Positions 1-37,879 of a stretch of DNA of 64,000 nucleotides are shown piece after piece. Below the pieces are notes generated by a model that was given only the letters and a program-made list of their open reading frames with translations, did not search any database and was not told the origin of the DNA. The position numbers and the translations under genes are program-made. The stretch covers positions 53,030 through 117,029 of the forward strand of contig JAAYMM010000002.1 of assembly GCA_012521335.1 (NCBI GenBank). The letters are read 5' to 3'. Positions within the stretch are counted from its first letter, which is position 1. Each line of letters starts with the position of its first letter. Source of the DNA: Bacillota bacterium. Lineage in GTDB: Bacteria > Bacillota > Limnochordia > Darwinibacteriales > Darwinibacteriaceae.

Positions 1-1
1 G

Positions 2-3560: not shown

Positions 3561-3561
3561 A

Positions 3562-4998: not shown

Positions 4999-5021
4999 GG
5001 TGAACCCCCCCTTGACATTAT

Positions 5022-5050: not shown

Positions 5051-5127
5051 TGCAATTAATCCTGCCAATCATAGAAGGGGCCTTTCCTCGGCATGCTACT
5101 AGGGAACACAATGTGAGGAGGGCTAAC

Positions 5128-5364: not shown

Positions 5365-5376
5365 GGGAGGAATGGG

Positions 5377-6393
5377 ATGTTCTGGAGCCCGCGACAGTAC
5401 CTCATTGCCTTTAATATGGTACAGGGAATCGGCGGCCGCAGGCTTCTGGCCTTAGAGCAGCATTTCGGCTCGCTCGCTGAGGCCTGGCACGCGCCCATGG
5501 GCGATCTGGCTCGGGTCAAGGGTGTTGGCCCCAAAACGGCTGAGCAGTTCTGTGCCGTACGCGGCCAGTTATGCCCGTTCCAAGAAGAGGAATGGGCAGC
5601 CAGCCGCGGCGCCAGGATCATCACTATCTGTGATGAAGAGTATCCGCAGTACTTGCGGCGTCTGGCCGTTCCACCGCCTGTACTGTATGTGTGGGGCGAA
5701 CTGCCGCAGGTGCCTGGCATTGCCGTAGTGGGCACGCGTCGGCCTTCACGCACGGGGATTGCCCAGGCGCAGTTCTTTACGGAGGAGATTGTGCGCCGGG
5801 GACGGGTAGTGGTATCGGGACTGGCCAGGGGGATAGATTTCTACGCTCATCAGCGCACTTTGGATTTGGGGGGCAAAACGGTGGCGGTGCTCGGCTCCAG
5901 CCTTCAGGAGATCTACCCGGCAGAACACCGGGGCTTGGCCAAGAGAATTGCCGAGCAAGGTGCTGTGGTAAGTGAGTTTTCCAGCCGCTGCCCCACTGTT
6001 CCAGGGAACTTCCCGCGCCGCAACCGCATCATCGCCGGGTGCGCCACAGGAGTGTTAGTGGTTCAGGCCGGGGCTGGGTCGGGGGCTCTGCGCACAGCTG
6101 ATTGGGCCTTGGAGCTGGGCATCGATGTCTGGTCTATACCAGGCGAAATCAGCGATCCTCTGCGGGAAGGGAATCACCAGCTGATCAAGGAGGGCGCCCA
6201 ACTGGTTACACACCCCGCCGAGCTGTTTGGTGCCGAAGGGGGCCAGGCGCAGTCGGCGGCATCCAGCATTGAGCAGTTACATGCCTCGGGACGAAACGCT
6301 AACGAAATAGCCGCGCAGCTGAGAAAGCCAGTTCAAGAGGTTTTGGTCGAGCTTTCGCGGCTGCAGGTAAAACAGGGCAAACAGCTGGGCTGA
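5377..6393 (+). CDS. dprA: DNA processing protein A (DprA/Smf)
   Basis: 338 aa; Rossmann-like core 'GIAVVGTRRPS...GGKTVAVLGSSL...' and C-terminal winged helix; conserved position before topA. Confidence 0.9.
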   Translation: MFWSPRQYLIAFNMVQGIGGRRLLALEQHFGSLAEAWHAPMGDLARVKGVGPKTAEQFCAVRGQLCPFQEEEWAASRGARIITICDEEYPQYLRRLAVPPPVLYVWGELPQVPGIAVVGTRRPSRTGIAQAQFFTEEIVRRGRVVVSGLARGIDFYAHQRTLDLGGKTVAVLGSSLQEIYPAEHRGLAKRIAEQGAVVSEFSSRCPTVPGNFPRRNRIIAGCATGVLVVQAGAGSGALRTADWALELGIDVWSIPGEISDPLREGNHQLIKEGAQLVTHPAELFGAEGGQAQSAASSIEQLHASGRNANEIAAQLRKPVQEVLVELSRLQVKQGKQLG

Positions 6394-6406
6394 AGTCACT
6401 GCCGGC

Positions 6407-6435
6407 TTGCATAATATTTCTAGAGCTACTATAAT
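6407..6435 (+). promoter_or_regulatory. Sigma-A type promoter TTGCAT-N17-TATAAT upstream of the smg-like ORF and topA
   Basis: Near-consensus -35/-10 with exactly 17-nt spacer; -10 is flanked by repeated TTCTAGA palindromic hexamers (possible operator). Confidence 0.55.
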
Positions 6436-6463
6436 GAGGGTAATTCTAGACAGGAAATGAGAG

Positions 6464-6868
6464 ATGGACTTGAGCAATCATGGTTCGCGACGTTCGGCCC
6501 GGATGCTGCAGATCGGTGCCGCAGTGAATGAGGATCTGGAGCTCGCTCTGCCAGAACTCCTCAGCAGGCTGGCCCAGGCGATGCAGCCCTCGGTGCTGGC
6601 TTTAGGTGACTTGGATGGAACCAAGAGCCGCGTGTTCAGTCAGTGGGAACAGGTCTGCTTATCCCAGGAAGCGCAGAGCTTTCTGCTTGCTGCCTTGCAT
6701 AGGAATATGGTCACTGCGCAGGAGCTGGAGCAGGCCATGGCCCTTCTCTTTGCGGAGATGAACGGATTTGCTGACCTGGAGGACATCAGGATCCTCCTGG
6801 AAGACGTGGTTGAGGATCCGGAACGCCAGAGCATGCTGGCGTTATTTGATGCTGAGTACATGCAATGA
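6464..6868 (+). CDS. Acidic helical protein, possibly Smg/DUF494-like (encoded between dprA and topA)
   Basis: 134 aa ORF downstream of a strong promoter; the dprA-smg-topA arrangement is known in other bacteria; weak 'FLLAAL...ELEQAMALLFAE' resemblance to Smg recalled from memory. Confidence 0.4.
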   Translation: MDLSNHGSRRSARMLQIGAAVNEDLELALPELLSRLAQAMQPSVLALGDLDGTKSRVFSQWEQVCLSQEAQSFLLAALHRNMVTAQELEQAMALLFAEMNGFADLEDIRILLEDVVEDPERQSMLALFDAEYMQ

Positions 6869-6895
6869 GGTTGTGAAGAGCACGGAGGTGGCTGA

Positions 6896-8983
6896 TTGGC
6901 TACGTTAATCATTGTGGAATCACCTGCCAAAGCGAACACCATCAAAGGATTTTTGGGCAGAAATTATACAGTAAAAGCGTCTTTAGGGCATGTGCGGGAT
7001 CTCCCCCGCAGCAAGCTGGGCGTGGATGTGGAGAACAACTTCGAACCCCGCTATATCACCATTCGAGGCAAAGGGCCCGTTTTGCAGGAGCTGCGGGAAG
7101 CGGCCAAGAAGGCAGATCGTGTCCTGCTGGCTACGGACCCTGACCGTGAAGGCGAGGCTATCGCCTGGCATCTAGCCGAGGCTTTGAACATAAAAGAGGA
7201 AAAGTGCCGCATCGATTTTCACGAGATCACCAAAGCCCAAGTACAGCAGTCCGTCAAAGAACCTCGGCCCATTTCCCAATCTTTAGTGGATGCCCAACAG
7301 GCACGGCGGGTTCTGGACCGAATTGTGGGCTACAAGCTGTCGCCGCTGCTCTGGTCCAAAGTGAAGCCGGGACTGAGTGCTGGGCGTGTGCAATCGGTGG
7401 CCGTGAAGCTGATCGTGGATCGAGAGCGGGAAATCGAGGCCTTTGTACCTGAAGAGTACTGGAGCGTCACCGCATTACTGGCCACCAGCCGCGGCGAGCA
7501 GTTCGAGGCGAAACTGCTGAACAGGGCGGGTAAGAAAATCCAACTGACCAATCAGGCAGAAGCTAAGCAGGTGCAGCAGGATGTTACCGGCGCCCCGTGG
7601 GTGGTGGCGGAAGTCAAGACCACCAAGCGCCTGCGCAATCCAGCGGCACCCTTTACCACCAGCACTATGCAGCAGGAGGCCGCACGCAAGCTTGGGTTTT
7701 CGGCAAAAAGGACTATGCGCGTGGCGCAGCAGCTTTATGAAGGTCTGCCCTTGGGCAAGCTGGGCACCCACGGTTTGATCACGTACATGCGTACTGATGC
7801 CACTAGGGTCTCGCCTGAGGCAGTCGCTGAAGCGCGGGAGTACATCAAGGACACCCACGGCGCGGATTATGTGCCGAAGAAACCGAGGCAGTACGCTTCG
7901 AAGAAAGGCGCGCAGCAGGCCCATGAGGCTATCAGACCTACCTCGGTGCTGCGTACACCAGAGGAAGTGAAGCCCTATCTATCACGGGATCAGTATAGAC
8001 TGTACAAGTTGATTTGGGAACGTTTCGTAGCTAGTCAGATGAGTTCGGCGACCTTTGATGCCACCAGTGTAGACATCAAAGTCAGCGATTATCTGTTTAG
8101 GGCCACCGGTTCCCGACTGACCTTCCCGGGCTTTTTGAAGCTCTACGTGGAAGGCAGCGATGAAAACGGGTTAGAAAGCGAACTTGGCGATCGTCTGCTG
8201 CCGGCCCTCGAGGCCGATCAGGTTCTCGATCTGCGCAAGCTTGACCTGCAGCAGCACTTCACCCAGCCCCCGCCTCGTTTCAGCCAAGCCACATTAGTCA
8301 AGACCTTGGAAGAAGAGGGTATCGGCAGGCCCAGCACTTACGCCCCCATTATCGATACGATTCTGAGCCGGGGCTATGTGTACCTTGAAGAGAAACGCTT
8401 TCGCCCCACTGAGCTGGGGATTATTGTTGTGGACCTGCTCTCCGAAAGCTTCCCGCAACTGCTGGATGTGGGGTTTACGGCAGCCCTAGAAACGCAGCTG
8501 GACCAGATCGAAGAGGGATCATTGAGTTGGCAGAGTGTGCTGCAGGAGTTCTACGGACCCTTTGCCCAAGACCTGGAAAAAGCCTATGAGGAACTGGAAC
8601 GCATCACCGTGCAGGATGAAGTAAGTGGTGTGATCTGTGAAAAGTGCGGACGGAACATGGTGTACAAGACCGGAAGATTCGGGCGTTTTCTGGCCTGCCC
8701 AGGCTATCCCGAATGCAAAAACACCAAGCCCATCTTGGATGAGATCGGTGTGGACTGCGCCCTCTGCAAAAGGGAAGGGAGGCCCGAAGGAAAGCTGGTG
8801 CGCAGGCGCACCCGCAACGGACGGCTTTTCTATGGCTGCAGCAATTATCCCGATTGCACTTATACTGCCTGGCAGCAGCCTGTGGCTGAGGCTTGCCCGC
8901 ATTGTGGCCACAACTTGGTGGTGCGCCGCAAAGGGAGCAAGCCGGTCTGCGTGAACAAAGAATGTCCCGGAGGTGAGGGCTAG
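6896..8983 (+). CDS. topA: DNA topoisomerase I
   Basis: Toprim N-terminus 'LIIVESPAKANTI', 'GHVRDLP', active-site Tyr region, C-terminal CxxC zinc ribbons; 695 aa. Confidence 0.95.
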   Translation: MATLIIVESPAKANTIKGFLGRNYTVKASLGHVRDLPRSKLGVDVENNFEPRYITIRGKGPVLQELREAAKKADRVLLATDPDREGEAIAWHLAEALNIKEEKCRIDFHEITKAQVQQSVKEPRPISQSLVDAQQARRVLDRIVGYKLSPLLWSKVKPGLSAGRVQSVAVKLIVDREREIEAFVPEEYWSVTALLATSRGEQFEAKLLNRAGKKIQLTNQAEAKQVQQDVTGAPWVVAEVKTTKRLRNPAAPFTTSTMQQEAARKLGFSAKRTMRVAQQLYEGLPLGKLGTHGLITYMRTDATRVSPEAVAEAREYIKDTHGADYVPKKPRQYASKKGAQQAHEAIRPTSVLRTPEEVKPYLSRDQYRLYKLIWERFVASQMSSATFDATSVDIKVSDYLFRATGSRLTFPGFLKLYVEGSDENGLESELGDRLLPALEADQVLDLRKLDLQQHFTQPPPRFSQATLVKTLEEEGIGRPSTYAPIIDTILSRGYVYLEEKRFRPTELGIIVVDLLSESFPQLLDVGFTAALETQLDQIEEGSLSWQSVLQEFYGPFAQDLEKAYEELERITVQDEVSGVICEKCGRNMVYKTGRFGRFLACPGYPECKNTKPILDEIGVDCALCKREGRPEGKLVRRRTRNGRLFYGCSNYPDCTYTAWQQPVAEACPHCGHNLVVRRKGSKPVCVNKECPGGEG

Positions 8984-10293
8984 TGACCCAGGTGACTGTG
9001 ATCGGGGGCGGCCTCGCCGGCAGTGAAGCTGCCTGGCAGCTAGCCACACGGGGCGTTGCCGTGCGCCTCTATGAAATGCGCCCTCAGGCGATGACCCCAG
9101 CCCATCATACGGCCGACCTGGCCGAACTTGTCTGCTCTAATTCTCTAGGGTCGGTCTTGGAGAGCACCGCCGGTGGGCTCCTCAAGCGTGAGCTGACGTT
9201 GATGGGCTCCCTGATCTTGGAGGCGGCAGAAAAAACCCAGGTGCCCGCGGGCAGTGCCCTAGCTGTGGACAGGCAGCTCTTTGCCCAGGAAGTAACCCGC
9301 CGCCTGGAAGAGCATCCTTTGGTGGAGATCATCCGGGAAGAGTGCCGGTCCATACCCCCGGGAATTGTAGTGATTGCCACCGGACCGCTGACCAGCCCTG
9401 CCTTGAGCAGTGCGCTGCAGCAGCTCACCAACGCGGAAAACCTGCACTTCTTCGATGCTGCGGCCCCTATCGTGTTGGGTGAGACCGTCCGCTACGATCT
9501 GGGTTTTTGGGGTGCCCGCTACGGTAAGGGCAGTCCCGATTATTTCAACTGCCCCATGTCCAAAGAGGAGTATCTGGCTTTCTGGCGAGCCCTCGTCACT
9601 GCTGAGATGGCGCCCCTCCACGAGCACGAAAAAGATGAAGACGGTTTTCCCGTGTTTGAAGGCTGCCTGCCAGTGGAAGTGATCGCCAAGCGCGGGGAAG
9701 ATGCCTTGCGCTACGGGCCTTTCCGTCCGGTGGGGCTCTCGGATGCGGAAGGACGCAAGCCCTATGCCGTACTGCAGCTGCGGCGGGAGAATACAGAAGC
9801 GACGCTGTTCAACTTAGTGGGCTGTCAGACCCGCTTGAAATGGGGCGAACAGCAGCGCGTGTTCAGGATGATCCCCGCTCTGCAGGAGGCGGAGTTTGTA
9901 CGCTACGGCGTGATGCACCGCAACACATTTATCAACTCACCAAGAGTACTCAAGGCCAGTTTTCAGTGCCGCGAGGAAGGCCGGCTGTTTCTGGCAGGGC
10001 AGCTCACCGGCGTGGAGGGCTATGTGGAAAGCACGGCCTCGGGCCTGTTGGCAGGGGTAAACGCAGCCCGGCTGGCCCAAGGCCAGGAGCCTTTGGTTCT
10101 GCCACGGGAAACCATGCTGGGGAGCCTCGCTCACTACATTGCCACCGCGGATCCCGAGCACTTCCAACCCATGAACGCGAACTTCGGGATTCTGCCGCCC
10201 TTGGATCCTCCAGTGCGGAGCAAGAAAGAACGGAAGCTGGCCTATACGGAGCGAGCGCTGCGTGCTTTGGCGGATTTCTGGCCCAGAGTGTAG
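8983..10293 (+). CDS. trmFO: Methylenetetrahydrofolate-tRNA-(uracil54-C5)-methyltransferase TrmFO (Gid)
   Basis: 'VTVIGGGLAGSEAAWQLA' FAD-binding N-terminus; 436 aa; conserved topA-gid-xerC order. Confidence 0.9.
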   Translation: MTQVTVIGGGLAGSEAAWQLATRGVAVRLYEMRPQAMTPAHHTADLAELVCSNSLGSVLESTAGGLLKRELTLMGSLILEAAEKTQVPAGSALAVDRQLFAQEVTRRLEEHPLVEIIREECRSIPPGIVVIATGPLTSPALSSALQQLTNAENLHFFDAAAPIVLGETVRYDLGFWGARYGKGSPDYFNCPMSKEEYLAFWRALVTAEMAPLHEHEKDEDGFPVFEGCLPVEVIAKRGEDALRYGPFRPVGLSDAEGRKPYAVLQLRRENTEATLFNLVGCQTRLKWGEQQRVFRMIPALQEAEFVRYGVMHRNTFINSPRVLKASFQCREEGRLFLAGQLTGVEGYVESTASGLLAGVNAARLAQGQEPLVLPRETMLGSLAHYIATADPEHFQPMNANFGILPPLDPPVRSKKERKLAYTERALRALADFWPRV

Positions 10294-10301
10294 GGGGGAG
10301 A

Positions 10302-11213
10302 ATGGCCGTGGAAGAGTTGAAGGAGTACCTGGATTACCTGCGGGTTCAGCGCAACTTGTCCCCCGCTACGGTGGATGCCTACGAGCGGGATTTGACCCAT
10401 TTCCTCCACTTCGTCTGGGAGCAGCTGGACCTTTTGGACAGGCCCCAAGCCCTGGCGGAAGTGGACAAGTATCTGGTCCGGGATTACCTGGCCTTTTTGA
10501 ACCGGGAAGGCTATGCACGGTCCAGTGTGGCCAGGCGCTTGGCCAGCATTCGGGGGTTCAGCCGATACCTCTATGCCCAAGGCCATATCGCCAAGGACTT
10601 TGCCCTCCCGGTGGGAACACCCAAACAGCCCAAGACGGTGCCTGAAACCATGACCATGGATGAGATCAGGTGCTTTTTGGAAGGCAACATGCCTGGGAGC
10701 AATGAGGCTCTGCGAGCTAGGAATAAAGCGATTTTTGAGCTCCTTTACGCCACAGGCATCAGGCTTTCTGAACTCGTGGGGTTGAACGTCGATGATGTGG
10801 ATACGACCCACCACTATGTGCGGGTTTTGGGCAAGGGGCGCAAAGAGCGCATCGTGCCTTTGGGTGAATATGCCCTGGCTAGTGTGCATAACTATTGCCT
10901 GAACTACCGCGGGCAGCTCCTCAAGGGCCAAGACAATCCAGCCCTCTTTTTGAATGCGGCTGGAAGCAGGATCACCCCCCGGGGTGTCCAGTATATTCTA
11001 GAGGAATGCTGCCGGCTTTTGGCTGTGCACAAGAAGATTACTCCCCATACTTTCCGACATACCTTTGCCACTCATCTGCTGGATAACGGGGCCGATCTGC
11101 GTTCTATCCAAGAACTGCTCGGCCACTCCAGCTTATCCACGACGCAGGTTTACACCAAGGTGACCCGCAGTCACCTCAAAACGGTGTACAATCGCGCGCA
11201 TCCCCGGGCGTAG
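10302..11213 (+). CDS. xerC: Tyrosine recombinase XerC (CodV-like)
   Basis: 'YLRVQRNLSPATVDAYERDL' core-binding domain; C-terminal 'HTFRHTFATHLL...LGHSSLSTTQVYT' catalytic motifs; start trimmed to ATG 10302 with GGGGGGAG RBS (the longer ORF overlaps trmFO). Confidence 0.85.
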   Translation: MAVEELKEYLDYLRVQRNLSPATVDAYERDLTHFLHFVWEQLDLLDRPQALAEVDKYLVRDYLAFLNREGYARSSVARRLASIRGFSRYLYAQGHIAKDFALPVGTPKQPKTVPETMTMDEIRCFLEGNMPGSNEALRARNKAIFELLYATGIRLSELVGLNVDDVDTTHHYVRVLGKGRKERIVPLGEYALASVHNYCLNYRGQLLKGQDNPALFLNAAGSRITPRGVQYILEECCRLLAVHKKITPHTFRHTFATHLLDNGADLRSIQELLGHSSLSTTQVYTKVTRSHLKTVYNRAHPRA

Positions 11214-11237
11214 CCCGATTAGACGGAGGGAACACGC

Positions 11238-11783
11238 ATGACGATCAGGTCCACCACAATTATCGCCGTCCGCCGCGCCGATCAAGTGGTGCTGGCTGGA
11301 GACGGCCAGGTCACCTTAGGCGAGAGAACAGTAATCAAACACGGCACCACCAAAGTGAGGACGCTGTGCGACGGCCGTATCCTGGCCGGCTTTGCCGGAG
11401 CTGCCGCGGATGCCATTACCCTGTTTGAGAAATTGGAGCAGAAGCTGAAGGATCACTCTAACCAGCTTTTGCGCGCCGCGGTGGAGATGGGGAAAGAATG
11501 GCGGTCTGACCGCTATCTGCGCCGCTTGGAAGCCCAGCTCTTGGTGGCCGATCGAGAGCTGACCCTGCTCATAGCCGGCAGCGGCGACATTATCGAACCC
11601 GATGACGGAGTCATTGCCATCGGTTCAGGCGGCCCCTATGCCATGGCCGCAGGCCTGGCCCTGCTGAAGAACACGGACATGACGGCCAGGGAGATTGCCT
11701 TGGAAGCGCTGCGCATAACAGCCAATATCTGCATTTATACCAATAACAATATTTCTGTTGTGGAACTCAAGGGTAATGCCTAG
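11238..11783 (+). CDS. hslV: ATP-dependent protease subunit HslV (ClpQ/CodW)
   Basis: 'TTIIAVRR...VLAGDGQVT...[10 protein letters not shown]' proteasome beta-like motifs. Confidence 0.9.
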
Positions 11784-11797
11784 AAAGGGGTGGGAGT

Positions 11798-13177
11798 ATG
11801 GATCTCACACCGCAGGAGATAGTAGCCGAACTTGATCGTTATATTATCGGGCAGGATGAAGCCAAGCGTGCCGTGGCTATCGCTCTGCGCAACCGCTACC
11901 GCCGTCGGCGGCTGGCCCCGGAAGTGCGAGAGGATATCCTGCCGAAGAACATCTTGATGATCGGTCCCACTGGGGTGGGCAAGACGGAGATCGCCCGGCG
12001 CTTGGCCCGCTTGGCCGGGGCGCCCTTCGTGAAAGTGGAAGCCACCAAGTTCACCGAAGTTGGCTATGTCGGCCGGGATGTGGAGTCCATCATCCGCGAA
12101 CTGGTAGATGTGGCCATCCGCATGGTGAAAGAACAGAAAATGGCCGAAGTGGAGGATCGGGCCAAGGCTTTGGCGGAAGAACGGCTGGTGGAACTGCTGG
12201 TCCCCAGTCCTGCGCCTGCCTCACGGTTCAATCCAATGGATATCTTCTGGGGGCTCACCCAGCAGGCGCCTGCCAGCAAGCCGGCCGCGGAGGATGAGGA
12301 GAGAATCAGGAAGGAACGGCGCCGCGTGCGGGAGCTGCTCCGGCTGGGCGAACTAGAGGACGAGCTGGTGGAAGTGGCGGTAGAGAAGTCGTCCAACTTC
12401 TTCTGGGAGATGCCCGGTTCCGGCCTAGATGACCTGGGCGCCAGTTTCAAGGAGATGCTCGGTGATCTGCTGCCGAAAAAGATGCAGAAGCGTACCATGC
12501 CGGTGCGGGAGGCCAGAGGTGTGCTCGTGCAGGAAGAAGCCACCAAGCTGTTGGATATGGATGCGGTCATGGCCGAGGCCGTTCGGCTAGCCGAGGAATC
12601 GGGCATTGTCTTCATCGACGAAATCGACAAGATTGCCGGTTCAGACCATAAAGGAGGCCCTGATGTCTCCCGGGAAGGCGTGCAGCGAGATATTCTGCCC
12701 ATCATTGAAGGCTGCACAGTGATTACCAAAGCAGGTCCGGTGCGCACTGATTACATCCTGTTCATCGCCGCGGGGGCCTTCCACATTTCCCAGCCAGCCG
12801 ACTTAATTCCGGAGCTGCAGGGGCGTTTCCCCATCCGGGTCAACCTGTCTAACCTGCGGGCGGAAGACTTCGCGCGCATTCTCACGGAGCCGGCGAACTC
12901 CCTGACCAAGCAGTACGCTGCCCTCTTGGGCACAGAAGGGGTAATCTTGGATTTCACCGAGGAGGGCGTCTTGGAGATTGCTAGGATCGCCGAGGAAGTG
13001 AACCGGGCCACCGAGAACATCGGTGCACGGCGGCTGCATACCATCCTTGAGAGTCTGTTGGAGGATGTGAGTTTTGCGCCGCCCACGGGGGAAAAAGTGG
13101 TCATCGATGCGCAGTACGTTCGGCACAAACTCGGTGACCTGGTGCAGGACCGCGACTTAACCCGTTACATTCTTTAG
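11798..13177 (+). CDS. hslU: ATP-dependent protease ATPase subunit HslU (ClpY/CodX)
   Basis: Walker A '[15 protein letters not shown]', I-domain, '[11 protein letters not shown]'; 459 aa. Confidence 0.9.
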
Positions 13178-13247
13178 GCAATTCTTCGGGAAGAATCGTG
13201 AACGCAGGTAGGATTTTGCTGGATCGTGACGAATTCCATAATTGAGT

Positions 13248-13278
13248 TGGGGGAGAGGCAAAACGACTCCCCTTTTTC
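13248..13278 (+). terminator. Rho-independent terminator after hslU
   Basis: GGGGAG-loop-CTCCCC followed by TTTTT. Confidence 0.65.
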
Positions 13279-13378
13279 ACTTTGCCGATCAATGCGGGCA
13301 GGACTTCCCTTCGCTTTAGCGAAGTAACGGGGAAGGGAAATATTGTCAGTAACGGATTTTGTCGGGGAGGGAACCCTG

Positions 13379-13777
13379 ATGTTTCGATTGGTGGACAGAT
13401 TGAGTGTCGGGTTGAGCAAGGCCAGCCTGCGCCAGACAGTACTCAGCAATAATTTGGCGAACTTCAATACTCCCGGATTCAAGCGTTCCGACGTGGTGGA
13501 CAACCCGTCATTCACCAGCGAACTGGGCAAAGCACAGGGCGCGTCCCTGCGGCGCACCCACAGCAGACATCTGCCTGGCTTTTCCGGCAGAATGGATGGG
13601 GCCTTTTCAGTGGTGGAAGATCGCAGTACCACCATGCGTACGGATGGCAACAACGTAGATGTTGACCGGGAGCGGGTTCTGCTCTTGGAAAACCAGCTCT
13701 ACTACGATTCCTTGATCGATGCGGTGAGCCGCAAGCTCAGCCAGCTGCGAACAGTCATCGGGGAAGGGAGGAGGTAG
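13379..13777 (+). CDS. flgB: Flagellar basal-body rod protein FlgB
   Basis: 'RQTVLSNNLANFNTPGFKR' rod protein N-terminal motif; ATG 13379 after GGGGAGGG. Confidence 0.85.
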   Translation: MFRLVDRLSVGLSKASLRQTVLSNNLANFNTPGFKRSDVVDNPSFTSELGKAQGASLRRTHSRHLPGFSGRMDGAFSVVEDRSTTMRTDGNNVDVDRERVLLLENQLYYDSLIDAVSRKLSQLRTVIGEGRR

Positions 13778-13780
13778 TTC

Positions 13781-14215
13781 GTGAGCGTATTTAAGATCTT
13801 CCGCATCGCCGCCTCAGGCTTAACCGCGGAGCGGCTGCGCATGGACACCATCGCCAATAACTTGGCCAACGCCAACACGACACGCACGCCTGAAGGCGGC
13901 CCCTACCGCCGGCAGGTACCAGTGTTCGCGCCAATATTGGACAAGTTCATGCGTGCAGGTACAGCGCAGCGGTCGGGTTTCTCCGGCGGGGGAGTGCAGG
14001 TTGTGGGAGTGGTGAGCGATCCTTCGCCGCCGCGCCTGGTCTATGATCCCCAGCACCCCGATGCCAATGCAGATGGGTACGTGGAGATGCCCAACGTACA
14101 TGTGGTGAAGGAGATGGTGGATCTGATTACGGCCACACGCGCTTACGAGGCCAACATCGCAGCTTTGAATTCAGCCAAATCCATGGCGCAGCGCGCCTTG
14201 GAGATTGGCCGTTAG
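13781..14215 (+). CDS. flgC: Flagellar basal-body rod protein FlgC
   Basis: 'ASGLTAERLRMDTIANNLANANTT' and C-terminal 'YVEMPNVHVVKEMVDLITATRAYEAN'. Confidence 0.9.
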   Translation: MSVFKIFRIAASGLTAERLRMDTIANNLANANTTRTPEGGPYRRQVPVFAPILDKFMRAGTAQRSGFSGGGVQVVGVVSDPSPPRLVYDPQHPDANADGYVEMPNVHVVKEMVDLITATRAYEANIAALNSAKSMAQRALEIGR

Positions 14216-24731: not shown

Positions 24732-25544
24732 ATGGATCTAGCAACCATAATGGGTATTATCATCGGCCTAGGTCTGATGGTTTTCTCCATCCTCATGGAA
24801 GGCGACATCGGGCTGTTTCTCAGCCTGCCCAGCCTCATGATCGTCTTCGGCGGAACTTTTGCTTCCATCATGGTCACTTTTTCCATGAAAGAGGTTCTCA
24901 GTGTCATCCCCCTGCTCAGGGTAGCCTTTTCCAGGCAGACGAACGACAGCGCCGCAGTCATAGACACCCTGGTGGAGTTTGCTGAGGTTTCCCGCCGGGA
25001 GGGCCTGCTGGCACTGGAAGAAAGGGCGCAGGCCACGAACGAACCATTCCTCCAGAAAGGCATCCAGCTCATCGTGGACGGCACCGATGCCGAACTGGTG
25101 CGCAGCATCCTGGAAATCGAGCTGTATTTTTTGGAGGAACGTCACCGCATCGGCCAGCGCATCTTTGAACAGATGGGGGCTCTATCGCCCGCTTACGGTA
25201 TGATCGGTACTCTGATCGGACTTATCGCCATGCTGGGCGCCTTGGATAAACCAGACCAGGTTGGTATGGGTATGGCCGTAGCGCTGATCACCACTCTGTA
25301 CGGCGCCATTGCCTCCAACCTCCTGTTCCTGCCCATCGCCGGGAAACTCAAACTGAAAAGTGACGAAGAGGTTTTGATGAAGCAGGTCATGATCGAGGGA
25401 ATTTTATCCATCCAAGCAGGGGAGAATCCCAGGATTGTAGAAGAAAAACTGAAGTCGTTCCTCTCGCCGGTGGAAAGGGAAGCTGCAGGTCGGGAGGGGG
25501 CCAGGGCACGGGCCGCTCAAGAGGGAGTGACCGCGAATGCGTAG
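24732..25544 (+). CDS. motA: Flagellar motor stator protein MotA
   Basis: 270 aa, four TM segments, conserved 'GTLIGLIAMLG' and 'ALITTLYGAIASNLLFLPIAGKL' regions. Confidence 0.9.
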   Translation: MDLATIMGIIIGLGLMVFSILMEGDIGLFLSLPSLMIVFGGTFASIMVTFSMKEVLSVIPLLRVAFSRQTNDSAAVIDTLVEFAEVSRREGLLALEERAQATNEPFLQKGIQLIVDGTDAELVRSILEIELYFLEERHRIGQRIFEQMGALSPAYGMIGTLIGLIAMLGALDKPDQVGMGMAVALITTLYGAIASNLLFLPIAGKLKLKSDEEVLMKQVMIEGILSIQAGENPRIVEEKLKSFLSPVEREAAGREGARARAAQEGVTANA

Positions 25545-26250
25545 CCGCAGGCGGAAGGATGATTCTGCTGTTACCGGTTCTTGGTTAACGACCTATTCGG
25601 ACATGATGTCGCTCCTGTTGGCCTTTTTCGTGCTCCTGTTTTCCTTTTCCGTGATCGACGAGCACAAGTTCGCCACCTTCATCACAGCCTTTCAGGAGTA
25701 TATTGGCATCATCGGCGAAGGCCAGGCGGCTTTGGAACAACCGGGACCGCTGCCCATGGATTATTCCGACGTGGGCCAACGCCAGCTATGGGAGCTGTTT
25801 GAGGAGCTGGTCGAACTCATTGAGCAGGAAGGCTTAACGGGTGTCCAATTGGATCTGCAGGAACGGGGACTGGTGGTGCGTTTCGCAGAACAGGTTTTCT
25901 TTGACCTGGGAGAAGCCACCTTAAAACCTGAAGCTAGGGAAACGCTGCGAAAACTTGCTGGTACACTTAGGAGTCTGCCTAATCCTTTGCGTGTAGAAGG
26001 GCACACTGACAACCTCCCGATCAACACTCCGCGCTTTCCCTCCAACTGGGAGTTGAGCGTGCATCGGGCCACCAATGTAGTGCGTTTTCTCATCGAAGAG
26101 GAAGGGTTCGACCCTCAGAAGCTCTCAGCAGCAGGTTATTCGGAGTATCGTCCCTTGAAGCCTAACGACAGCGCCGAAAACCGCGCCATGAACCGCCGAG
26201 TAGATATTGTTATCCTCAATATCGATCTGTGGGACTATGAACCCAATTAA
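25537..26250 (+). CDS. motB: Flagellar motor stator protein MotB (OmpA-like C-terminus)
   Basis: N-terminal TM 'WLTTYSDMMSLLLAFFVLLFSFS' with the conserved Asp region; C-terminal OmpA-like 'GHTDNLPI...SNWELSVHRATNVVRFL'. Confidence 0.9.
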   Translation: MRSRRRKDDSAVTGSWLTTYSDMMSLLLAFFVLLFSFSVIDEHKFATFITAFQEYIGIIGEGQAALEQPGPLPMDYSDVGQRQLWELFEELVELIEQEGLTGVQLDLQERGLVVRFAEQVFFDLGEATLKPEARETLRKLAGTLRSLPNPLRVEGHTDNLPINTPRFPSNWELSVHRATNVVRFLIEEEGFDPQKLSAAGYSEYRPLKPNDSAENRAMNRRVDIVILNIDLWDYEPN

Positions 26251-32894: not shown

Positions 32895-33983
32895 ATGAGG
32901 GTTAAGAAATTTACAGGAAAGACGATACAAGAAGCAGTAGAGAACTTACGGGACGAGTTTGGGCCCGATGCGGTCATCCTGCATACGACACAGAAGAGGG
33001 CTTGGTTGTGGGGAAGGCTTGGACCAAAGCGCTACGAGGTGCTGGGGGCCTTTGACCTCAGCTACCAAGCGTCCCGGGGCAAGAACAGGAGGCCCGCGGG
33101 GACAAGAACTGCCACCCAACCCTATGCGCCGTCCACTGCGCCGTATAGCCTCAAGGGTGGCCAGGCCTCAACGCCTGCCGACGGCCGTTTGGACCCTGCT
33201 TGGTCTGAGGCAGTGCAGAGCATTTACAGTAGACTGATCAAGGTTGATATTCCCAGGGATCTGGCTGCGCAGCTGATCAGGGAGGTTCTGGGCCAGGCTG
33301 CGAAAGAAGAGTGGAACAATGAAGCGAAGCTGTGGGCTGAGCTGACCAAACTTATCGCCAGCCGCATCAAAACAGCACTGCCCTGGGAATTTGACGCTGA
33401 ACAGAAGGTTGTGGTGTTGATCGGTCCCACCGGGGTGGGTAAGACCACAACCATTGCCAAACTTGCGGCCAACTTTTCGCTGGTTGCCGGCCGCAAAGTC
33501 GGGTTGATCACCGTTGATACCTACCGCATTGCCGCGGTGGAACAGCTCAAGACCTATGCGGAGATTATTGGCCTGCCTCTGCATGTGGCTTACAGTCCGA
33601 AAGAACTGAAGGAGGGTATCGCCAAGCTCAAAGACAGAGATCTCATCCTCATTGACACAGCTGGCCGGAGCCAGAACAACCACATTCAGATTGCGGAGCT
33701 GAGGAATTTCTTCGAGGGTGTTGAAGCGGAAATGCATTTGGTGATCAGTGCCACGACCAAACCACGGGACGTGGACGAGATCATATCGGTTTTTGGGCAA
33801 TTGCCGATTGATCGGGTGATCATCACCAAATTAGACGAGACAAGTGTCTATGGAGTCCTACTCCACACTTGTGAAAGGGCCCAAGTGCCCATTGCCTTCG
33901 TTACCACGGGACAGGGGGTACCAGAGGATATCGAAGTAGCGGATGGCGAGAGAATTGCCCAACTTATTCTGGGGGACGCATAA
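32895..33983 (+). CDS. flhF: Flagellar biosynthesis GTPase FlhF (SRP-type)
   Basis: 'MRVKKFTGKTIQEAVENLRDEFGPDAVIL' N-terminus; SRP-GTPase '[15 protein letters not shown]', 'DTAGR'. Confidence 0.9.
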   Translation: MRVKKFTGKTIQEAVENLRDEFGPDAVILHTTQKRAWLWGRLGPKRYEVLGAFDLSYQASRGKNRRPAGTRTATQPYAPSTAPYSLKGGQASTPADGRLDPAWSEAVQSIYSRLIKVDIPRDLAAQLIREVLGQAAKEEWNNEAKLWAELTKLIASRIKTALPWEFDAEQKVVVLIGPTGVGKTTTIAKLAANFSLVAGRKVGLITVDTYRIAAVEQLKTYAEIIGLPLHVAYSPKELKEGIAKLKDRDLILIDTAGRSQNNHIQIAELRNFFEGVEAEMHLVISATTKPRDVDEIISVFGQLPIDRVIITKLDETSVYGVLLHTCERAQVPIAFVTTGQGVPEDIEVADGERIAQLILGDA

Positions 33984-33985
33984 CA

Positions 33986-34840
33986 ATGAGAGATCAAGCG
34001 GCAGACTTGAGAAGTCTGGTTGCACAAAAGGAACCCAGCTCTCGAATCATCGCTGTGACCAGTGGCAAAGGCGGGGTTGGGAAGACTAATCTGGCTGTCA
34101 ACTTGGCACTGGCCTTGTGTCAGATGGACTACCGAGTAGTTCTGATTGACGTGGATTTGGGCCTGGCCAACGTGGACATCGTCTTAGGTATTACTCCCAA
34201 ATACAATTTGGGGCATGTGATCAACGGAGAAAAGACACTGCGGGATATCATAGTGGAAGGCCCCTTAGGCCTGAAGATTATCTCGGGAGGTTCTGGGATC
34301 ACCGAACTGGCCAACCTCAACGGTTACCGTTTAGAGGCCTTTGTGGCATCTTTCGAGCAGCTGAACCAAGAGTTTGACTTTGTGATCCTGGACACGGGCG
34401 CAGGAGTGCACCGCTCTGTGATCAGCTTTGTGCTTGCTGCCACGGACGTAATCGTAGTTACTACTCCCGAACCCACGGCGATCACCGATGCCTACGGCCT
34501 GCTGAAGATCATCCATCAGCGGGCGCCGCACTCTAGGGTACGCCTGGTGGTTAACATGGCGAAAAGCCCGGCCGAGGCTGAGATGGTCGCTGCCAGGCTC
34601 AACTCGGTTTTGCGGGAGTTTGTCCAGTGGGAAGTGGATTATACAGGGTACATCCTTACCGAATCGCAAGTGGCGCGGGCTATTGCCGAGCAGCAGCCCT
34701 TTTTGCTGTCTTTCCCCTCTTCTATGGCCAGCCGGTCCGTCAAGAGGATCGCCGGAGTATTGGCCGGAGAGTCTGCCCCCAGCCAGCCTTTAGGTATTCG
34801 AGGCTTCTTTGCGAGAGTATCTGGACTGCTGCACTTTTAG
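33986..34840 (+). CDS. flhG: MinD-like ATPase FlhG (YlxH/FleN)
   Basis: Deviant Walker A 'SGKGGVGKTN'; position after flhF. Confidence 0.85.
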   Translation: MRDQAADLRSLVAQKEPSSRIIAVTSGKGGVGKTNLAVNLALALCQMDYRVVLIDVDLGLANVDIVLGITPKYNLGHVINGEKTLRDIIVEGPLGLKIISGGSGITELANLNGYRLEAFVASFEQLNQEFDFVILDTGAGVHRSVISFVLAATDVIVVTTPEPTAITDAYGLLKIIHQRAPHSRVRLVVNMAKSPAEAEMVAARLNSVLREFVQWEVDYTGYILTESQVARAIAEQQPFLLSFPSSMASRSVKRIAGVLAGESAPSQPLGIRGFFARVSGLLHF

Positions 34841-34852
34841 AGAGGGAATGAT

Positions 34853-35503
34853 ATGCAGGTCGTACCAAATCAACTAGTAGAGCTACACCTAGAAGGACCT
34901 GGAGGGCCACAGGTTTATCGCACCAGGGTGGAAGATGTCTACGATGACATTGTGGTGGTAGGGGCCCCGTTGGAGCAGGGGGCGGTTGTCCCCATCCGCA
35001 TCGGCACAGAGCTGCGCATTGAGTTCAAACTGCGTGGGCCCGGCCAAGAAGGGCGCTTCAGCAATAGAGCCATAGTAGAAAAGCGTTTCCGCACGACCAT
35101 CCCCCTTCTGCAGATGAGGCTGTTGGGGCAGTGGGAGAAGACCCAAGAGCGCATGTTTGTGCGGGTTCCCGTGCACCTCGATGCAGTGGTGGTTCCCCTT
35201 ACGGAAGGGGGAGAGGAGCTCCCAGCTGAACCAGGACTGATCCGTAACTTAAGTGGGGGCGGTTTTCTGCTCCGCTCGACACGGGCTTTTGAGCTTGATG
35301 AGGAAATGCGCATCAGCTTTCGCGTGGGAACAGAGCAGATCATGGCCAAGGCCTATGTGGCGCGGTTTGTGCCTACGGATGAGGGACACGACTTCGGCTG
35401 CGGCTTTCTGGAGATCGCGGAAAACATGCGCAAAGCCGTCATTCGGTTCGTGTTCAGGCGCCAGATCGAGCTGGCGGAGATTACCCGGGAGGATATCACC
35501 TAA
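34853..35503 (+). CDS. PilZ-domain protein (YcgR-like flagellar brake candidate)
   Basis: 216 aa; PilZ c-di-GMP binding motifs RxxxR ('RMFVR') and D/NxSxGG ('NLSGGG'); located between flhG and fliA. Confidence 0.65.
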   Translation: MQVVPNQLVELHLEGPGGPQVYRTRVEDVYDDIVVVGAPLEQGAVVPIRIGTELRIEFKLRGPGQEGRFSNRAIVEKRFRTTIPLLQMRLLGQWEKTQERMFVRVPVHLDAVVVPLTEGGEELPAEPGLIRNLSGGGFLLRSTRAFELDEEMRISFRVGTEQIMAKAYVARFVPTDEGHDFGCGFLEIAENMRKAVIRFVFRRQIELAEITREDIT

Positions 35504-35527
35504 CTCATTCCCCATGGGGTGAAGAAT

Positions 35528-36289
35528 ATGTCTTTGCACAAGGAGCAGAATCGCATCGAAGAACTATGGCGCCGCTACAAGAAAAGCAATGATGCTCAGG
35601 CACGGGACGAGTTGATCGAAGAATACATACCCTTGGTTAAGTTTGTGGCTGGCCGGCTGGCCATGAACCTACCCAGCAGCGTAGAAGTGGGTGACCTTGA
35701 GAGTTTCGGCTTTTTCGGCCTCTTGGACGCACTGGAGAAGTTCGATGCGGACCGCAACACCAAGTTCGAAACCTATGCCACCACGCGTATCCGGGGTGCC
35801 ATCATCGATGGGCTGCGGTCTTTGGATTGGGTTCCCCGCAGCACCCGCTCCAAAGCGCGGTTGGTGGAAAGCCAAATCTACGAACTCACCAATGATCTAG
35901 GCCGCACGCCCACAAATGAAGAGGTGGCTCAAGCCTTAGGCCTCAGCCTAGATGAGTATTACGGCCTATTGTCAGAGCTCAAGGGAGCTAACCTCTTTTC
36001 GCTGGATGAAGCGGCAGCCAGCGAGCAGGCGGGAGACAACCTGAAGATTCTGGATTTGGTTGTGGACCAGGGACTCCTGCCGGACCAGCAGATCTTGGAA
36101 AAGGAAAGCGTGGAGGAACTAGCGGCAGCCATCGAGGCGTTGTCTGAGAGGGAGCAGCTGGTTTTGGCGCTTTATTATCACGAGGATTTGACTTTGAAGG
36201 AAATTGGCCATGTACTGCAGGTTTCCGAGTCCCGAGTATCCCAGATTCACACTAAGGCCATTATGACCTTACGAAGTCGGCTCAGCTAA
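35528..36289 (+). CDS. fliA: Flagellar sigma factor FliA/SigD (sigma-28)
   Basis: Sigma-70 regions 2/3/4 ('IEEYIPLVKFVAGRL', 'TLKEIGHVLQVSESRVSQIHTKA'); ~254 aa; last regulatory gene of the fla operon. Confidence 0.9.
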   Translation: MSLHKEQNRIEELWRRYKKSNDAQARDELIEEYIPLVKFVAGRLAMNLPSSVEVGDLESFGFFGLLDALEKFDADRNTKFETYATTRIRGAIIDGLRSLDWVPRSTRSKARLVESQIYELTNDLGRTPTNEEVAQALGLSLDEYYGLLSELKGANLFSLDEAAASEQAGDNLKILDLVVDQGLLPDQQILEKESVEELAAAIEALSEREQLVLALYYHEDLTLKEIGHVLQVSESRVSQIHTKAIMTLRSRLS

Positions 36290-36306
36290 GAGCGGAGGGA
36301 AGGGTC

Positions 36307-36573
36307 ATGTCCATCAGGTTTCCCGATTTCCAAATTCTAGTTTCCAGGTCCGATCAGGTGCCAAAGGTTGTGCGCGAGGGTGACCCCACCGGCGCAGCTG
36401 GCCGCCTGGCTCCCCAGGTAAGCGAAGAGTTTGCCGCCCGGGAAAGGCGTGTGGAACTGAACCGGGAAAAGGAGCGCATCCGGGACCGCAAAGATGAGCG
36501 GAGGGGCCGGCAAGAACAGCAAGGAGCCTCCAAGCGGCCGGGGGCGAGACGGCGGATCGATCTGCGCGCCTAG
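36307..36573 (+). CDS. Hypothetical small basic protein (Arg/Glu-rich C-terminus) downstream of fliA
   Basis: 88 aa ORF with strong GGAGGGAAGGG RBS and ATG; no recognised family. Confidence 0.5.
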   Translation: MSIRFPDFQILVSRSDQVPKVVREGDPTGAAGRLAPQVSEEFAARERRVELNREKERIRDRKDERRGRQEQQGASKRPGARRRIDLRA

Positions 36574-36585
36574 GGAGTTGGTCAG

Positions 36586-36978
36586 GTGGAGTTCTTCCTT
36601 GTGTTCACTTTAGGGATAGCCGTGGCAGTACTGGGCCTGTTTCTGCTCAGGCCCGGTCTTTTTACGCGTCCAAACACGGACTTTTCTGTGCTGGAAGTGA
36701 TGGTGGAGGAAGCCTTGGAACAGCTGGAGCAAAGGCAGGCCGAAATCCTCGCGGAGATCGAGGAGCAGCACAACGCGCTGTTGGAGCTGCAGAAGCAGAT
36801 TCTCAGCAGCTTTTTCCCGGAACCGCAGCAGTCTCCCAAGGTACTGGCTGTACTGGAGCTGGCCTCGCAGGGCAAGGATGTGGAGCAGATCGCCAAAAAG
36901 CTCGGGTTGGGAGTTGGGGAAGTAGAGCTCATCTTGGAGCTAAATAAAGACAGCGAACCCCTTGCTGAAAGCACTTGA
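36586..36978 (+). CDS. Hypothetical membrane-anchored coiled-coil protein with a C-terminal HTH-like segment (SwrB-position analogue?)
   Basis: 130 aa; N-terminal TM, coiled coil, 'DVEQIAKKLGLGVGEVELILELN'; GTG start after GGGAG. Confidence 0.5.
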   Translation: MEFFLVFTLGIAVAVLGLFLLRPGLFTRPNTDFSVLEVMVEEALEQLEQRQAEILAEIEEQHNALLELQKQILSSFFPEPQQSPKVLAVLELASQGKDVEQIAKKLGLGVGEVELILELNKDSEPLAEST

Positions 36979-36990
36979 GTGTGTTATATT
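36962..36990 (+). promoter_or_regulatory. Sigma-A promoter with extended -10 (TTGCTG-N17-TGtTATATT) for rpsB-tsf
   Basis: Hexamers and 17-nt spacer read directly; ~110-nt leader follows with a GGGAGATAAGG/CCTTATCCC hairpin (37024-37052). Confidence 0.5.
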
Positions 36991-37099
36991 AGCAAGTGGT
37001 GTGATTACACACGCTTCTGGATGGGAGATAAGGGTGCCGTTAAGGTCTTATCCCTAGATGAAGGGGGCGGAGGAAAAACAAAGGAAGGAGGTGGACGAA

Positions 37100-37879
37100 A
37101 TGGCCGTAATTACCATGAAGCAACTGCTGGAGGCCGGCGTTCACTTCGGTCATCAGACCCGCAGATGGAATCCTAAGATGAAGCCGTACATCTTCACTGA
37201 AAGAAACGGGATTTACATCATTGACCTGCAGAAAACGGTCAAGAAAGTGGAGGAAGCCTATTCCTTCATTCGGGAAACGGTGGCCGCAGGCAAATCGGTG
37301 CTCTTCGTAGGCACGAAGAAGCAAGCTCAGGAAACCATCCGGGAAGAGGCAGAGCGGTGCGGCATGTTCTACGTCAACCAGCGCTGGCTGGGCGGTATGC
37401 TCACCAACTTCAAGACCATTTCCTCGCGGATTGGGCGCCTGGAGCAGATCGAGAAGATGGAAGCCGATGGCGTGTTTGACGTTCTGCCGAAGAAGGAAGT
37501 TACGCAGCTGAAGAAGGAAAAAGAGCGCTTAACTCGCTTCCTAGGCGGTATTCGGAACATGAAAACCCTGCCGGGCGCGGTATTTGTGGTTGATCCCCGC
37601 AAAGAGCGCATTGCTGTGGCAGAAGCACGCAAGCTTGGTATTCCCATCGTGGCGATCGTAGATACAAACTGCGATCCTGATGAAATTGACTATGTCATCC
37701 CTGGTAACGATGACGCCATCCGAGCTGTGAAGCTCCTGACTTCCACCATCGCTAGCGCTGTGGTCGAAGCCAGAGAGGGAGCCAGCTTCGCCGAAGCTCA
37801 GGAAGAGCAGGCTACCGAAGCTGAAGCAGAAACGGAACTCGCTGAAGAAGATACAGATCTGTACGACGAGGAAGAATAA
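37100..37879 (+). CDS. rpsB: 30S ribosomal protein S2
   Basis: '[22 protein letters not shown]' N-terminus; acidic C-terminal tail; GGAGGTG RBS. Confidence 0.95.

Follow-up and report, generated by a model that had tools for sequence, protein, structure and literature searches.

A SwrB homologue and a small protein of a narrow, unnamed family between fliA and rpsB in a Limnochordia genome fragment

The genome fragment considered here, a stretch of 64,000 nucleotides (nt) from a Bacillota bacterium of the Limnochordia (assembly GCA_012521335.1, contig JAAYMM010000002.1, positions 53,030 to 117,029 of the forward strand; referred to below as the window), contains two small open reading frames (ORFs) at the distal end of its fla operon, directly after fliA, the gene for the flagellar sigma factor sigma-28. 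The first, ORF88, encodes a protein of 88 amino acids (aa) and the second, ORF130, one of 130 aa. ORF130 is a homologue of SwrB of Bacillus subtilis by sequence, architecture and position, and adds a member to a known family rather than being a novel protein. The presence of ORF88, whose own family is narrow and unnamed, makes the locus a variant of the sigD-swrB module. The evidence leans towards the interpretation that ORF130 is the Limnochordia orthologue of SwrB and works at the export-activation step, and that ORF88 is a lineage-restricted, partner-binding addition to the module.

Evidence that ORF130 belongs to the SwrB family

ORF130 matches the Pfam family DUF6115 (PF19610) with a score of 34.6 bits, where the gathering threshold (GA) is 27, and an E-value of 2.9e-8. 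The same family is matched by all 24 of the ORF130-family members and by 22 of the 23 SwrB-family members. PF19610 is present in the proteins that NCBI and UniRef list under the name “swarming motility protein SwrB [Bacillus subtilis]”, and NCBI labels SwrB orthologues either as SwrB or as “DUF6115 domain-containing protein”; since the B. subtilis SwrB proteins were retrieved with an approximate SwrB query, the conclusions drawn here rest on the database-named sequences that were retrieved. Comparison of ORF130 by BLASTP with one SwrB sequence (P0103) shows the last 39 residues to be 44% identical (E 9e-6). When the profile of the Limnochordia family (alignment A2) is compared by hhalign with that of the Bacillaceae SwrB family (alignment A3), the local comparison has a probability of 83% and an E-value of 8.8e-6, and the global comparison, which runs end to end, a probability of 93% and an E-value of 4.7e-8.

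The global alignment pairs the transmembrane (TM) helices of the two families, the segments LFTR and LYTR, the segments ‘Q..IL.E.E.....LLEL’ and ‘Q..ILEETENTLAAFLLEL’, and the C-terminal motif ‘G.....IA.......G..E.EL.L’. Residues L52-L53-E54-L55 of SwrB are placed opposite L65-L66-E67-L68 of ORF130, L48 is placed opposite H62, and F51 falls in a gap. L48, F51 and L53 are the residues at the junction of SwrB that are essential for its activity, the L53P allele being null, and the counterpart of L53 in ORF130, L66, is nearly invariant. A search of the sequences in the PDB with the ORF130 family gave nothing significant.

The preliminary description of this region had given ORF130 an N-terminal TM helix, a coiled coil and a C-terminal end resembling a helix-turn-helix (HTH), and this layout is borne out by the model that AlphaFold2 (AF2) produces from the family alignment, in which helices occupy residues 2-21, 31-76, 84-94, 99-106 and 110-120, the last three forming a bundle (mean predicted local distance difference test score, pLDDT, 75.7). 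Because the TM helix has no lysine or arginine before it but R22 and R28 after it, the protein is predicted to lie with its N-terminus outside and its C-terminus inside (N-out/C-in); the N-out single-pass topology of SwrB has been shown experimentally. The net charge is -10 over residues 29-80 and about -14 over the cytoplasmic part, and the isoelectric point (pI) of the whole protein is 4.3. SwrB and ORF130 therefore have in common, with the ORF130 side predicted, an N-out TM helix, a cytoplasmic coil and a C-terminal three-helix end, together with the ILxExE...LLEL junction and a G-x15-E-x2-L pattern in the C-terminal domain. They differ in length, SwrB having 167 aa.

The gene stands in the same place as well. 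Like swrB, it is the last gene of the fla operon and lies in the interval between the sigma-28 gene and rpsB, with ORF88 intercalated, and because the B. subtilis locus reads cheD-sigD-swrB-rpsB-tsf-pyrH-frr, this position is orthologous to that of swrB. The preliminary description was thus right to put the pair in the place of swrB. Its view of the two proteins as uncharacterised holds for ORF88, but not for ORF130, which is in the same Pfam family as SwrB; the term “analogue” of a secretion activator, which it used, has for the same reason to give way to “homologue”. The remote homology check that it proposed leads from ORF130 to SwrB and DUF6115, by both hhalign and Pfam, and from ORF88 to no significant family match.

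Two of the retrieved homologues of ORF130, P0042 (168 aa) and P0076 (108 aa), contain an insert that looks out of frame (…CWRCWNW…KMWRKLPK…) and lies within, or duplicates, the C-terminal domain. They are probably frameshifted or misassembled metagenome sequences and not true variants.

The C-terminal module and its likeness to FipA

The Pfam family DUF2802 (PF10975) is also matched by ORF130, with 25.5 bits and an E-value of 1.5e-5, residues 51-121 falling on positions 20-68 of the hidden Markov model (HMM). At E<=0.1 the family is matched by 20 of the 24 ORF130-family members (best 7.5e-6) and by 15 of the 23 SwrB-family members, and a protein identical to ORF130 is named “DUF2802 domain-containing” by NCBI. 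According to a report on FipA (PMC11620751), the source of what is said of FipA here, DUF2802 is the cytoplasmic domain of FipA, a TM-coil-DUF2802 protein of Vibrio, Pseudomonas and Shewanella whose topology has been determined experimentally to be N-out/C-in and whose gene lies just downstream of the flhA-flhF-flhG-fliA operon. FipA binds FlhF; the substitutions G110A and L129A abolish binding, and G110, E126 and L129 are 100% conserved.

The G-x15-E-x2-L spacing of these three residues (G110/E126/L129 in FipA (Vp)) recurs as G96/E112/L115 in ORF130 and as G136/E152/L155 in SwrB, and it is also present in a spirochaete protein, that of locus L029, which is taken up below. E112 and L115 are invariant in the ORF130 family, and G96 is the majority residue only (alignment A2). 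The position of FipA L129 is that of SwrB L155, and L155P is among the five stable SwrB alleles that lose function. The likeness of ORF130 to FipA extends to a short N-terminus outside the membrane, a TM helix, a coiled coil and a C-terminal domain of equal length, to a gene position downstream of flhA-flhF-flhG-fliA and to co-occurrence with FlhF and FlhG. The operon of ORF130 includes flhF and flhG, as it does in related loci. By analogy with FipA, FlhF, encoded four genes upstream, is a plausible partner of ORF130.

It is possible, though on the unlikely side, that ORF130 is FipA-like and not SwrB-like, its C-terminal module recruiting or stimulating FlhF at the membrane and thereby determining how many flagella there are or where they sit, without acting directly on the type III export gate. 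The DUF2802 cross-matches, the spacing of the very residues that mediate FipA-FlhF binding, the TM-coil-domain architecture and operon position reported for FipA and the presence of flhF and flhG in the operon here are all in keeping with such a role, as is a divergent contig (L081) on which the order is flhA-flhF-flhG-fliA-ORF88like-DUF6115 with no che genes. The match to DUF6115, and with it to SwrB, is however the stronger one and is above its gathering threshold, whereas the DUF2802 match is below its own; the FipA report describes the family only from polar flagellates of the gamma-proteobacteria; a link to FlhF is unreported for SwrB, and the mutants of the two genes, swrB and flhF, behave differently. 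In addition, a FipA-like role is compatible with the SwrB-type explanation preferred here, the target of SwrB itself being unknown.

The module is found outside flagellar operons as well. In spirochaetes (locus L029, positions 461-4255, and also loci L018-L080) giant proteins, of 1264 aa in L029, have an N-terminal TM helix followed by a long coiled coil and end in the same …GEVELILEL… module. For the L029 protein, the final 151 aa match DUF6115 with 29.6 bits, above the gathering threshold, and DUF2802 with 28.8 bits, and the family SpiroCoCo (NCBIfam NF047515) has this same C-terminal module after an N-terminal TM helix and coiled coil; it differs from ORF130 in consisting of giant proteins whose genes are not beside flhF, flhG or fliA. 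Because the spirochaete loci have no flhF or fliA alongside the related gene, which in L029 adjoins a DnaK-like (Hsp70) gene, the flagellar-operon context is not universal for this domain. Its occurrence here contradicts the FipA report, according to which the domain is absent from spirochaetes.

A further relative is known from Campylobacter jejuni. FlgW, which has been listed as “FlgW/SwrB”, is described as a distant relative of SwrB that interacts with FliO, and a protein of roughly 20 kDa, CJJ81176_0198, co-purifies with FliO, its mutant lacking one or both polar flagella. We infer from literature reports that FlgW and CJJ81176_0198 are the same protein, and the relationship of FlgW to SwrB is likewise taken from the literature.

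The “HTH-like” segment noticed in the preliminary description is the conserved DUF6115/DUF2802 core. Because the segment is acidic and tethered to the membrane, and because the equivalent residues of FipA bind a protein, it is probably a protein-binding surface and not a DNA-binding one. The reading of ORF130 as a membrane-tethered HTH transcription factor, or as a mimic of sigma region 4 that binds DNA, draws on the Foldseek search, in which the best PDB matches are HTH domains of the NarL/RcsB/LuxR type and of sigma region 4 (probability 0.95-0.99), on matches to the Pfam HTH families GerE (16.5 bits, E 0.0068) and Sigma70_r4_2 (15.7 bits, E 0.011; best within the ORF130 family, 1.7e-4), and on the automatic annotation of some homologues as “NarL/FixJ family response regulator” by the Joint Genome Institute. 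All of the HTH-family matches are nevertheless below the gathering scores (23.5 and 25.7 bits, respectively), the Foldseek E-values are weak (about 0.15), and the would-be recognition helix, GEVELILELN from G111, has three glutamates and no lysine or arginine in a domain of net charge -4, within a protein that is itself acidic and anchored in the membrane. A DNA-binding function is thus very improbable.

ORF88, its conservation and its possible role

ORF88 is a basic protein (pI 11.3, net charge +8). The preliminary description had remarked on its Arg/Glu-rich C-terminus and strong ribosome-binding site, and there are indeed 15 arginines and 8 glutamates in residues 40-88 and a GGAGG 8 nt upstream of the start. 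No match to it was found in Pfam or NCBIfam, the match in PHROGs is non-significant (E 0.74), and no PDB sequence matches below an E-value of 0.1. It matches 26 clusters among 5.8 billion proteins, all from metagenome-assembled genomes (MAGs) of the Limnochordia type and all annotated as hypothetical, and of 1.84 billion cluster representatives the profile of its family recovers no more than 15 at E<=1e-3. It has no paralogues within the window, and the idea that it is a split-off piece of SwrB or a relative of ORF130 was rejected, hhalign giving a probability of 0.1% for both.

Conservation within the protein is concentrated at its two ends. In the Limnochordia the N-terminus, MSI[KR]FPDFQ[VI]LV[ST]RS[DE]Q.P...REGD[PQ]TGAAG..APQV, and the last eight residues, RRRIDLRA, are almost invariant, and most of the 22 invariant columns of the family lie within residues 1-40. 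Distant members, with 25-37% identity, retain ‘I[KR]FPDLQVL..R’ in the opening segment, and their last residues still read ‘[LI]D[IV][KRQ]x’. The proportions of nonsynonymous (pN) and synonymous (pS) differences follow the same pattern: pN is 0.12 against a pS of 0.75 for residues 1-40, 0.08 against 0.71 (pN/pS about 0.1) for residues 1-20 and 0.12 against 0.67 for residues 81-88, and it rises to 0.43 against 0.86 (pN/pS about 0.5) for residues 61-80. Because pN is low and pS high in residues 1-40, it is the protein that is constrained there, not the DNA. The AF2 model has no secondary structure in residues 1-35 (pLDDT 51-61) or 76-88 and a helix at residues 36-75. A near-invariant N-terminus that is nonetheless predicted to be disordered is a pattern typical of peptides that fold on a partner.

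The gene is conserved together with its neighbours. In each of 48 loci, as far as the sequences reach, fliA lies directly 5' of it and a DUF6115 gene directly 3'; some organisms are probably represented in both the genome and the metagenome set, so that the 48 loci are not independent events. In 16 loci from Limnochordia-like GTDB species genomes the order is flhA-flhF-flhG-pilZ-fliA-ORF88-ORF130-rpsB-tsf-pyrH as far as the contigs reach, and all 27 loci from a metagenome scan (alignment A5) have the same order. One locus in a “Clostridia bacterium” MAG (L017) has fliA, a homologue of 89 aa, a DUF6115-type protein of 178 aa and rpsB. Among the divergent contigs, L082 reads cheA-cheW-cheC-cheD-fliA-ORF88like-DUF6115-(176 aa)-rpsB, L083 reads flhG-pilZ-fliA-ORF88like-DUF6115-rpsB, with the ORF88-like gene overlapping the fliA stop codon by 4 nt, and the short contig L084 has the same order. 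The order fliA-ORF88like-DUF6115 holds even in L081, where unrelated genes follow in place of rpsB, and no ORF88-like gene was found outside this context. ORF88 is thus tied to fliA and the swrB homologue and not to rpsB. Loss of conservation in relatives had been named in advance as the observation that would count against the pair; for ORF88 conservation instead holds strongly. The extra gene of L082 (positions 4842-5372 of that contig) encodes a predicted membrane protein of 176 aa with no Pfam match, between the DUF6115 gene and rpsB.

Adjacency to fliA raises the question of an anti-sigma role, since many sigma and anti-sigma gene pairs are adjacent. ORF88 could be a non-homologous replacement of FlgM, that is, a disordered anti-sigma-28 encoded beside its sigma factor and exported through the flagellar type III apparatus after completion of the hook-basal body. 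In its size and largely disordered prediction it resembles FlgM (PF04316), and like FlgM it is encoded in the flagellar regulon; it lies immediately 3' of fliA wherever the upstream flank is present, with an actual overlap in L083, and in B. subtilis sigma-D-dependent expression is controlled by SwrB activity. There is, however, no sequence or profile similarity between the two. ORF88 itself has no match to PF04316 at E<=1, nor has any of 19 family members at the looser limit of E<=5, and hhalign puts the probability of a relationship with E. coli FlgM at 0.2%, although the positive control, E. coli FlgM against PF04316, is found with an E-value of 1.8e-9. The pattern of conservation is moreover opposite, the conserved end being the N-terminus in ORF88 and the C-terminal, sigma-binding half in FlgM. 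A search of the literature on flagellar genes of the Limnochordia and FlgM found nothing relevant. A replacement of FlgM is judged decidedly unlikely. The statement of the preliminary description that neither protein resembles FlgM stands, and its suggestion of an anti-sigma function found no evidence in its support for either protein.

There is little probability in a further possibility, namely that ORF88 is a small exported type III substrate or a tether whose two end-peptides, spaced by a stiff Arg/Glu-rich helix, bridge two sites of the export apparatus. A layout in which conserved stretches (residues 1-40 and 81-88) flank a helix that differs in length among homologues would suit such a part, the operon encodes the export gate, and in C. 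jejuni FliO co-purifies with FlgW, a relative of SwrB. The idea is nevertheless purely architectural, export signals are unrecognisable from sequence, and searches of the PDB and the family libraries gave nothing.

In the model preferred here, ORF130 would be a single-pass, N-out membrane protein with an acidic cytoplasmic coiled coil and a small C-terminal three-helix module, which by its homology with SwrB would act at the membrane beside nascent basal bodies. To judge from the work on B. subtilis, it would promote the maturation of the basal body and the activation of flagellar type III export, and this activation would indirectly permit sigma-28-dependent expression. Its three-helix surface may, as the work on FipA suggests, dock a cytoplasmic flagellar protein, for which FlhF is a candidate and FliO/FliP or FliF/FliG, the partners raised for SwrB and FlgW, are alternatives. 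ORF88 would share a transcript with fliA and the swrB homologue, its translation probably being coupled to theirs. Its anatomy suggests that it may bind a conserved partner at the same step through its end-peptides, be it FliA, the export gate or the acidic region of ORF130 that lies in the cytoplasm. Because the charges are opposite (pI 11.3 for ORF88, net about -14 for the cytoplasmic part of ORF130) and the genes are tightly coupled, ORF130 or FliA would be the first candidates. The role most likely for ORF88 would be that of a binding partner at the sigma-28/SwrB step.

Several observations weigh against this model. On the side of SwrB, the PF19610 match covers HMM positions 56-133 of 134, the C-terminal 58% of the model; the local profile-profile probability is moderate, with a reliably aligned core of 33 columns; and B. 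subtilis SwrB itself scores 26.1 bits, just below the DUF6115 gathering threshold, in the copy of Pfam that was used. Of the features of SwrB that have been studied, H13, which is required for punctate localisation and only conditionally required in B. subtilis, corresponds to Val13 in ORF130, there being no histidine anywhere in residues 1-21; F51 has no counterpart; and the poorly conserved acidic linker of roughly 37 residues is missing. On the side of FipA, the DUF2802 score lies below the gathering threshold (25.5 against 33.5 bits), the correspondence of residues comes from HMM coordinates and spacing (the same model positions) and not from an alignment, and FipA homologues are stated by the authors of the report (PMC11620751) to be absent from Bacillus, epsilon-proteobacteria and spirochaetes; flhF and swrB mutants of B. 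subtilis, in turn, differ in the mobility of their basal bodies. As for ORF88, its AF2 model is of low confidence (mean pLDDT 63.8), and its partner cannot be named from conserved gene order alone.

Coding status, genomic setting and significance

Both ORFs are real genes under purifying selection, since their median pN/pS is about 0.3 (0.30 for ORF88 and 0.31 for ORF130 over 16 sequences, the window and 15 related loci) with synonymous differences near saturation in the codon alignments (pS about 0.8); the value for fliA, from a smaller set of the window and 6 loci, is 0.15. A GGGAG sits 8 nt before the GTG start of ORF130, which is also backed by an N-terminus, MEF/YFLVF, that is conserved across 24 homologues. 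The notion that one or both are chance ORFs, of the sort that GC-rich intergenic DNA yields in number, as with the minus-strand mirror ORF at 36582-36974, which is a by-product of the coding strand, is effectively refuted by these values, by the correctly spaced Shine-Dalgarno sequences and by the retention of length, termini and position in homologues down to about 25-30% identity. The claim of two small plus-strand genes directly after fliA is therefore sound (Table 1).

Table 1. Coordinates in the window of the two genes, their segments and the genes upstream
Feature	Position	Strand	Basis
flhF (signal recognition particle-type GTPase)	32895..33983	+	Pfam SRP54, E 8.6e-45
flhG (MinD/ParA-type ATPase)	33986..34840	+	Pfam ParA, AAA_31, CbiA
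PilZNR+PilZ protein (YcgR/MotI-like cyclic di-GMP receptor type), directly before fliA	34853..35503	+	PF12945 1.9e-11; PF07238 4e-11
fliA (sigma-28, FliA/WhiG family)	35519..36289	+	TIGR02479 276 bits (cutoff 189.6); Pfam sigma-70 r2, r3, r4
Shine-Dalgarno GGAGG, 8 nt 5' of ORF88 ATG	36294..36298	+	Sequence
ORF88, small basic protein, unnamed narrow family	36307..36573	+	ATG start, stop 36571-36573, 88 aa
ORF88 residues 1-40, conserved N-terminal segment MSI[KR]FPD[FL]Q.L..R...REGD..GAAG, predicted unstructured	36307..36426	+	Alignment A1, AF2
ORF88 residues 36-75, Arg/Lys/Glu-rich single helix, variable in length and sequence	36412..36531	+	AF2, pLDDT about 75
ORF88 residues 81-88, C-terminal motif RRRIDLRA ([LI]D[ILV][KRQ]x in distant members)	36547..36570	+	Alignments A1, A4
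ORF130, compact SwrB homologue (DUF6115)	36586..36978	+	GTG start, stop 36976-36978, 130 aa; PF19610 34.6 bits
ORF130 residues 2-21, single N-terminal TM helix, predicted N-out/C-in	36589..36648	+	AF2
ORF130 residues 31-76, acidic long helix (coiled-coil type), ‘ILxExE....LLEL’ junction motif common to SwrB	36676..36813	+	AF2
ORF130 residues 84-120, three-helix “HTH-like” bundle, DUF6115/DUF2802 core, G96, E112 and L115	36835..36945	+	AF2, Foldseek, DUF2802

The Limnochordia (Bacillota) fragment matches the gene order of the fla/che–rpsB region of B. subtilis. The window reads fliA-ORF88-ORF130-rpsB-tsf-pyrH-frr, preceded, by Pfam and NCBIfam assignment, by motA, motB, fliL, a gene for a FliN-domain switch protein, fliP, fliR, flhB, flhA (FHIPEP), flhF, flhG and the PilZNR+PilZ gene. 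In B. subtilis (locus L085) the order is flhG-cheB-cheA-cheW-cheC-cheD-sigD-swrB-rpsB-tsf-pyrH-frr-uppS-cdsA-dxr; swrB there adjoins sigD with a gap of 28 nt and no ORF88-like gene, whereas ORF130 is separated from fliA by ORF88, the gaps being 17 nt between fliA and ORF88 and 12 nt between ORF88 and ORF130. Farther upstream in the window lie rnhB, a D-Ala-D-Ala carboxypeptidase gene, dprA, topA, trmFO, hslV and hslU, and positions 1-14000, dprA-topA-trmFO-hslVU included, are in long-range synteny with the B. subtilis chromosome. The same interval also holds two genes for AsnC-type regulators and a Mg-chelatase-like (ComM-type) gene on the minus strand, before the flagellar operon. Identical proteins occur in MAGs labelled Firmicutes or Limnochordia.

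Some details of the operon differ from B. subtilis. The interval between flhG and fliA is occupied by the PilZNR+PilZ gene here and by cheB-cheA-cheW-cheC-cheD in B. subtilis; the PilZ gene before fliA is kept in the Limnochordia-like loci and in L083, and no PilZ match was found there in L017, L081 or L082. The genes motA and motB (24732-26250) lie within the fla operon, directly 5' of fliL, and elsewhere in B. subtilis.

As to signals in the DNA, a terminator scan of positions 34800-37200 gave 2 matches against a shuffled expectation of 2.6, no signal above chance, and because the count is below that expectation a terminator-like hairpin followed by CTTTTT at 36630-36657, inside the TM-coding part of ORF130, is probably meaningless. 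A scan of the 64-kb window against Rfam yielded nothing at gathering scores, and the sigma-28 consensus TAAA-N14-16-CCGATA has zero matches in it. The spacer between ORF130 and rpsB (36979-37099) contains a short hairpin, GTGTG-ATTA-CACAC, with no T-run (RNA fold z-score -2.0), and a possible extended -10 promoter, TGTTATATT, with TTGCTG 17 nt 5' of it. The rpsB start given by the mechanical ORF, 37058, is probably too early; the real start looks like 37100, with AAGGAGG 5' of it.

Taken alone, ORF130 is a routine upgrade of annotation, from “DUF6115/DUF2802 hypothetical” to “SwrB homologue”, and the significance of the locus rests mainly on ORF88 and on the testable link between SwrB, FipA and FlhF. 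ORF88 is an extra, strongly constrained small protein at the sigD-swrB junction in one lineage of the Bacillota, described in no database, and is put forward as a possible new component of the sigma-28 checkpoint. In the literature SwrB is described as narrowly distributed, without homologues of known function and with an unknown target; placing SwrB and FipA on the same conserved C-terminal motif suggests the question of whether SwrB binds FlhF. The connection may already have been raised, since three occurrences of the name SwrB are indexed for the full text of the FipA report (PMC11620751).

A more far-reaching proposal, which is unlikely, would make ORF88 a new class of sigma-28-linked regulator that couples FliA to a SwrB-type activator, its N-terminal peptide binding one partner and RRIDLRA the other, and would make SwrB, FipA, FlgW and SpiroCoCo versions of a single ancient module that is anchored in the membrane and uses its three-helix end to bind FlhF or the export gate. 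If such a shared module exists, SwrB, whose target has been unknown since 2015, would gain a concrete and testable partner.

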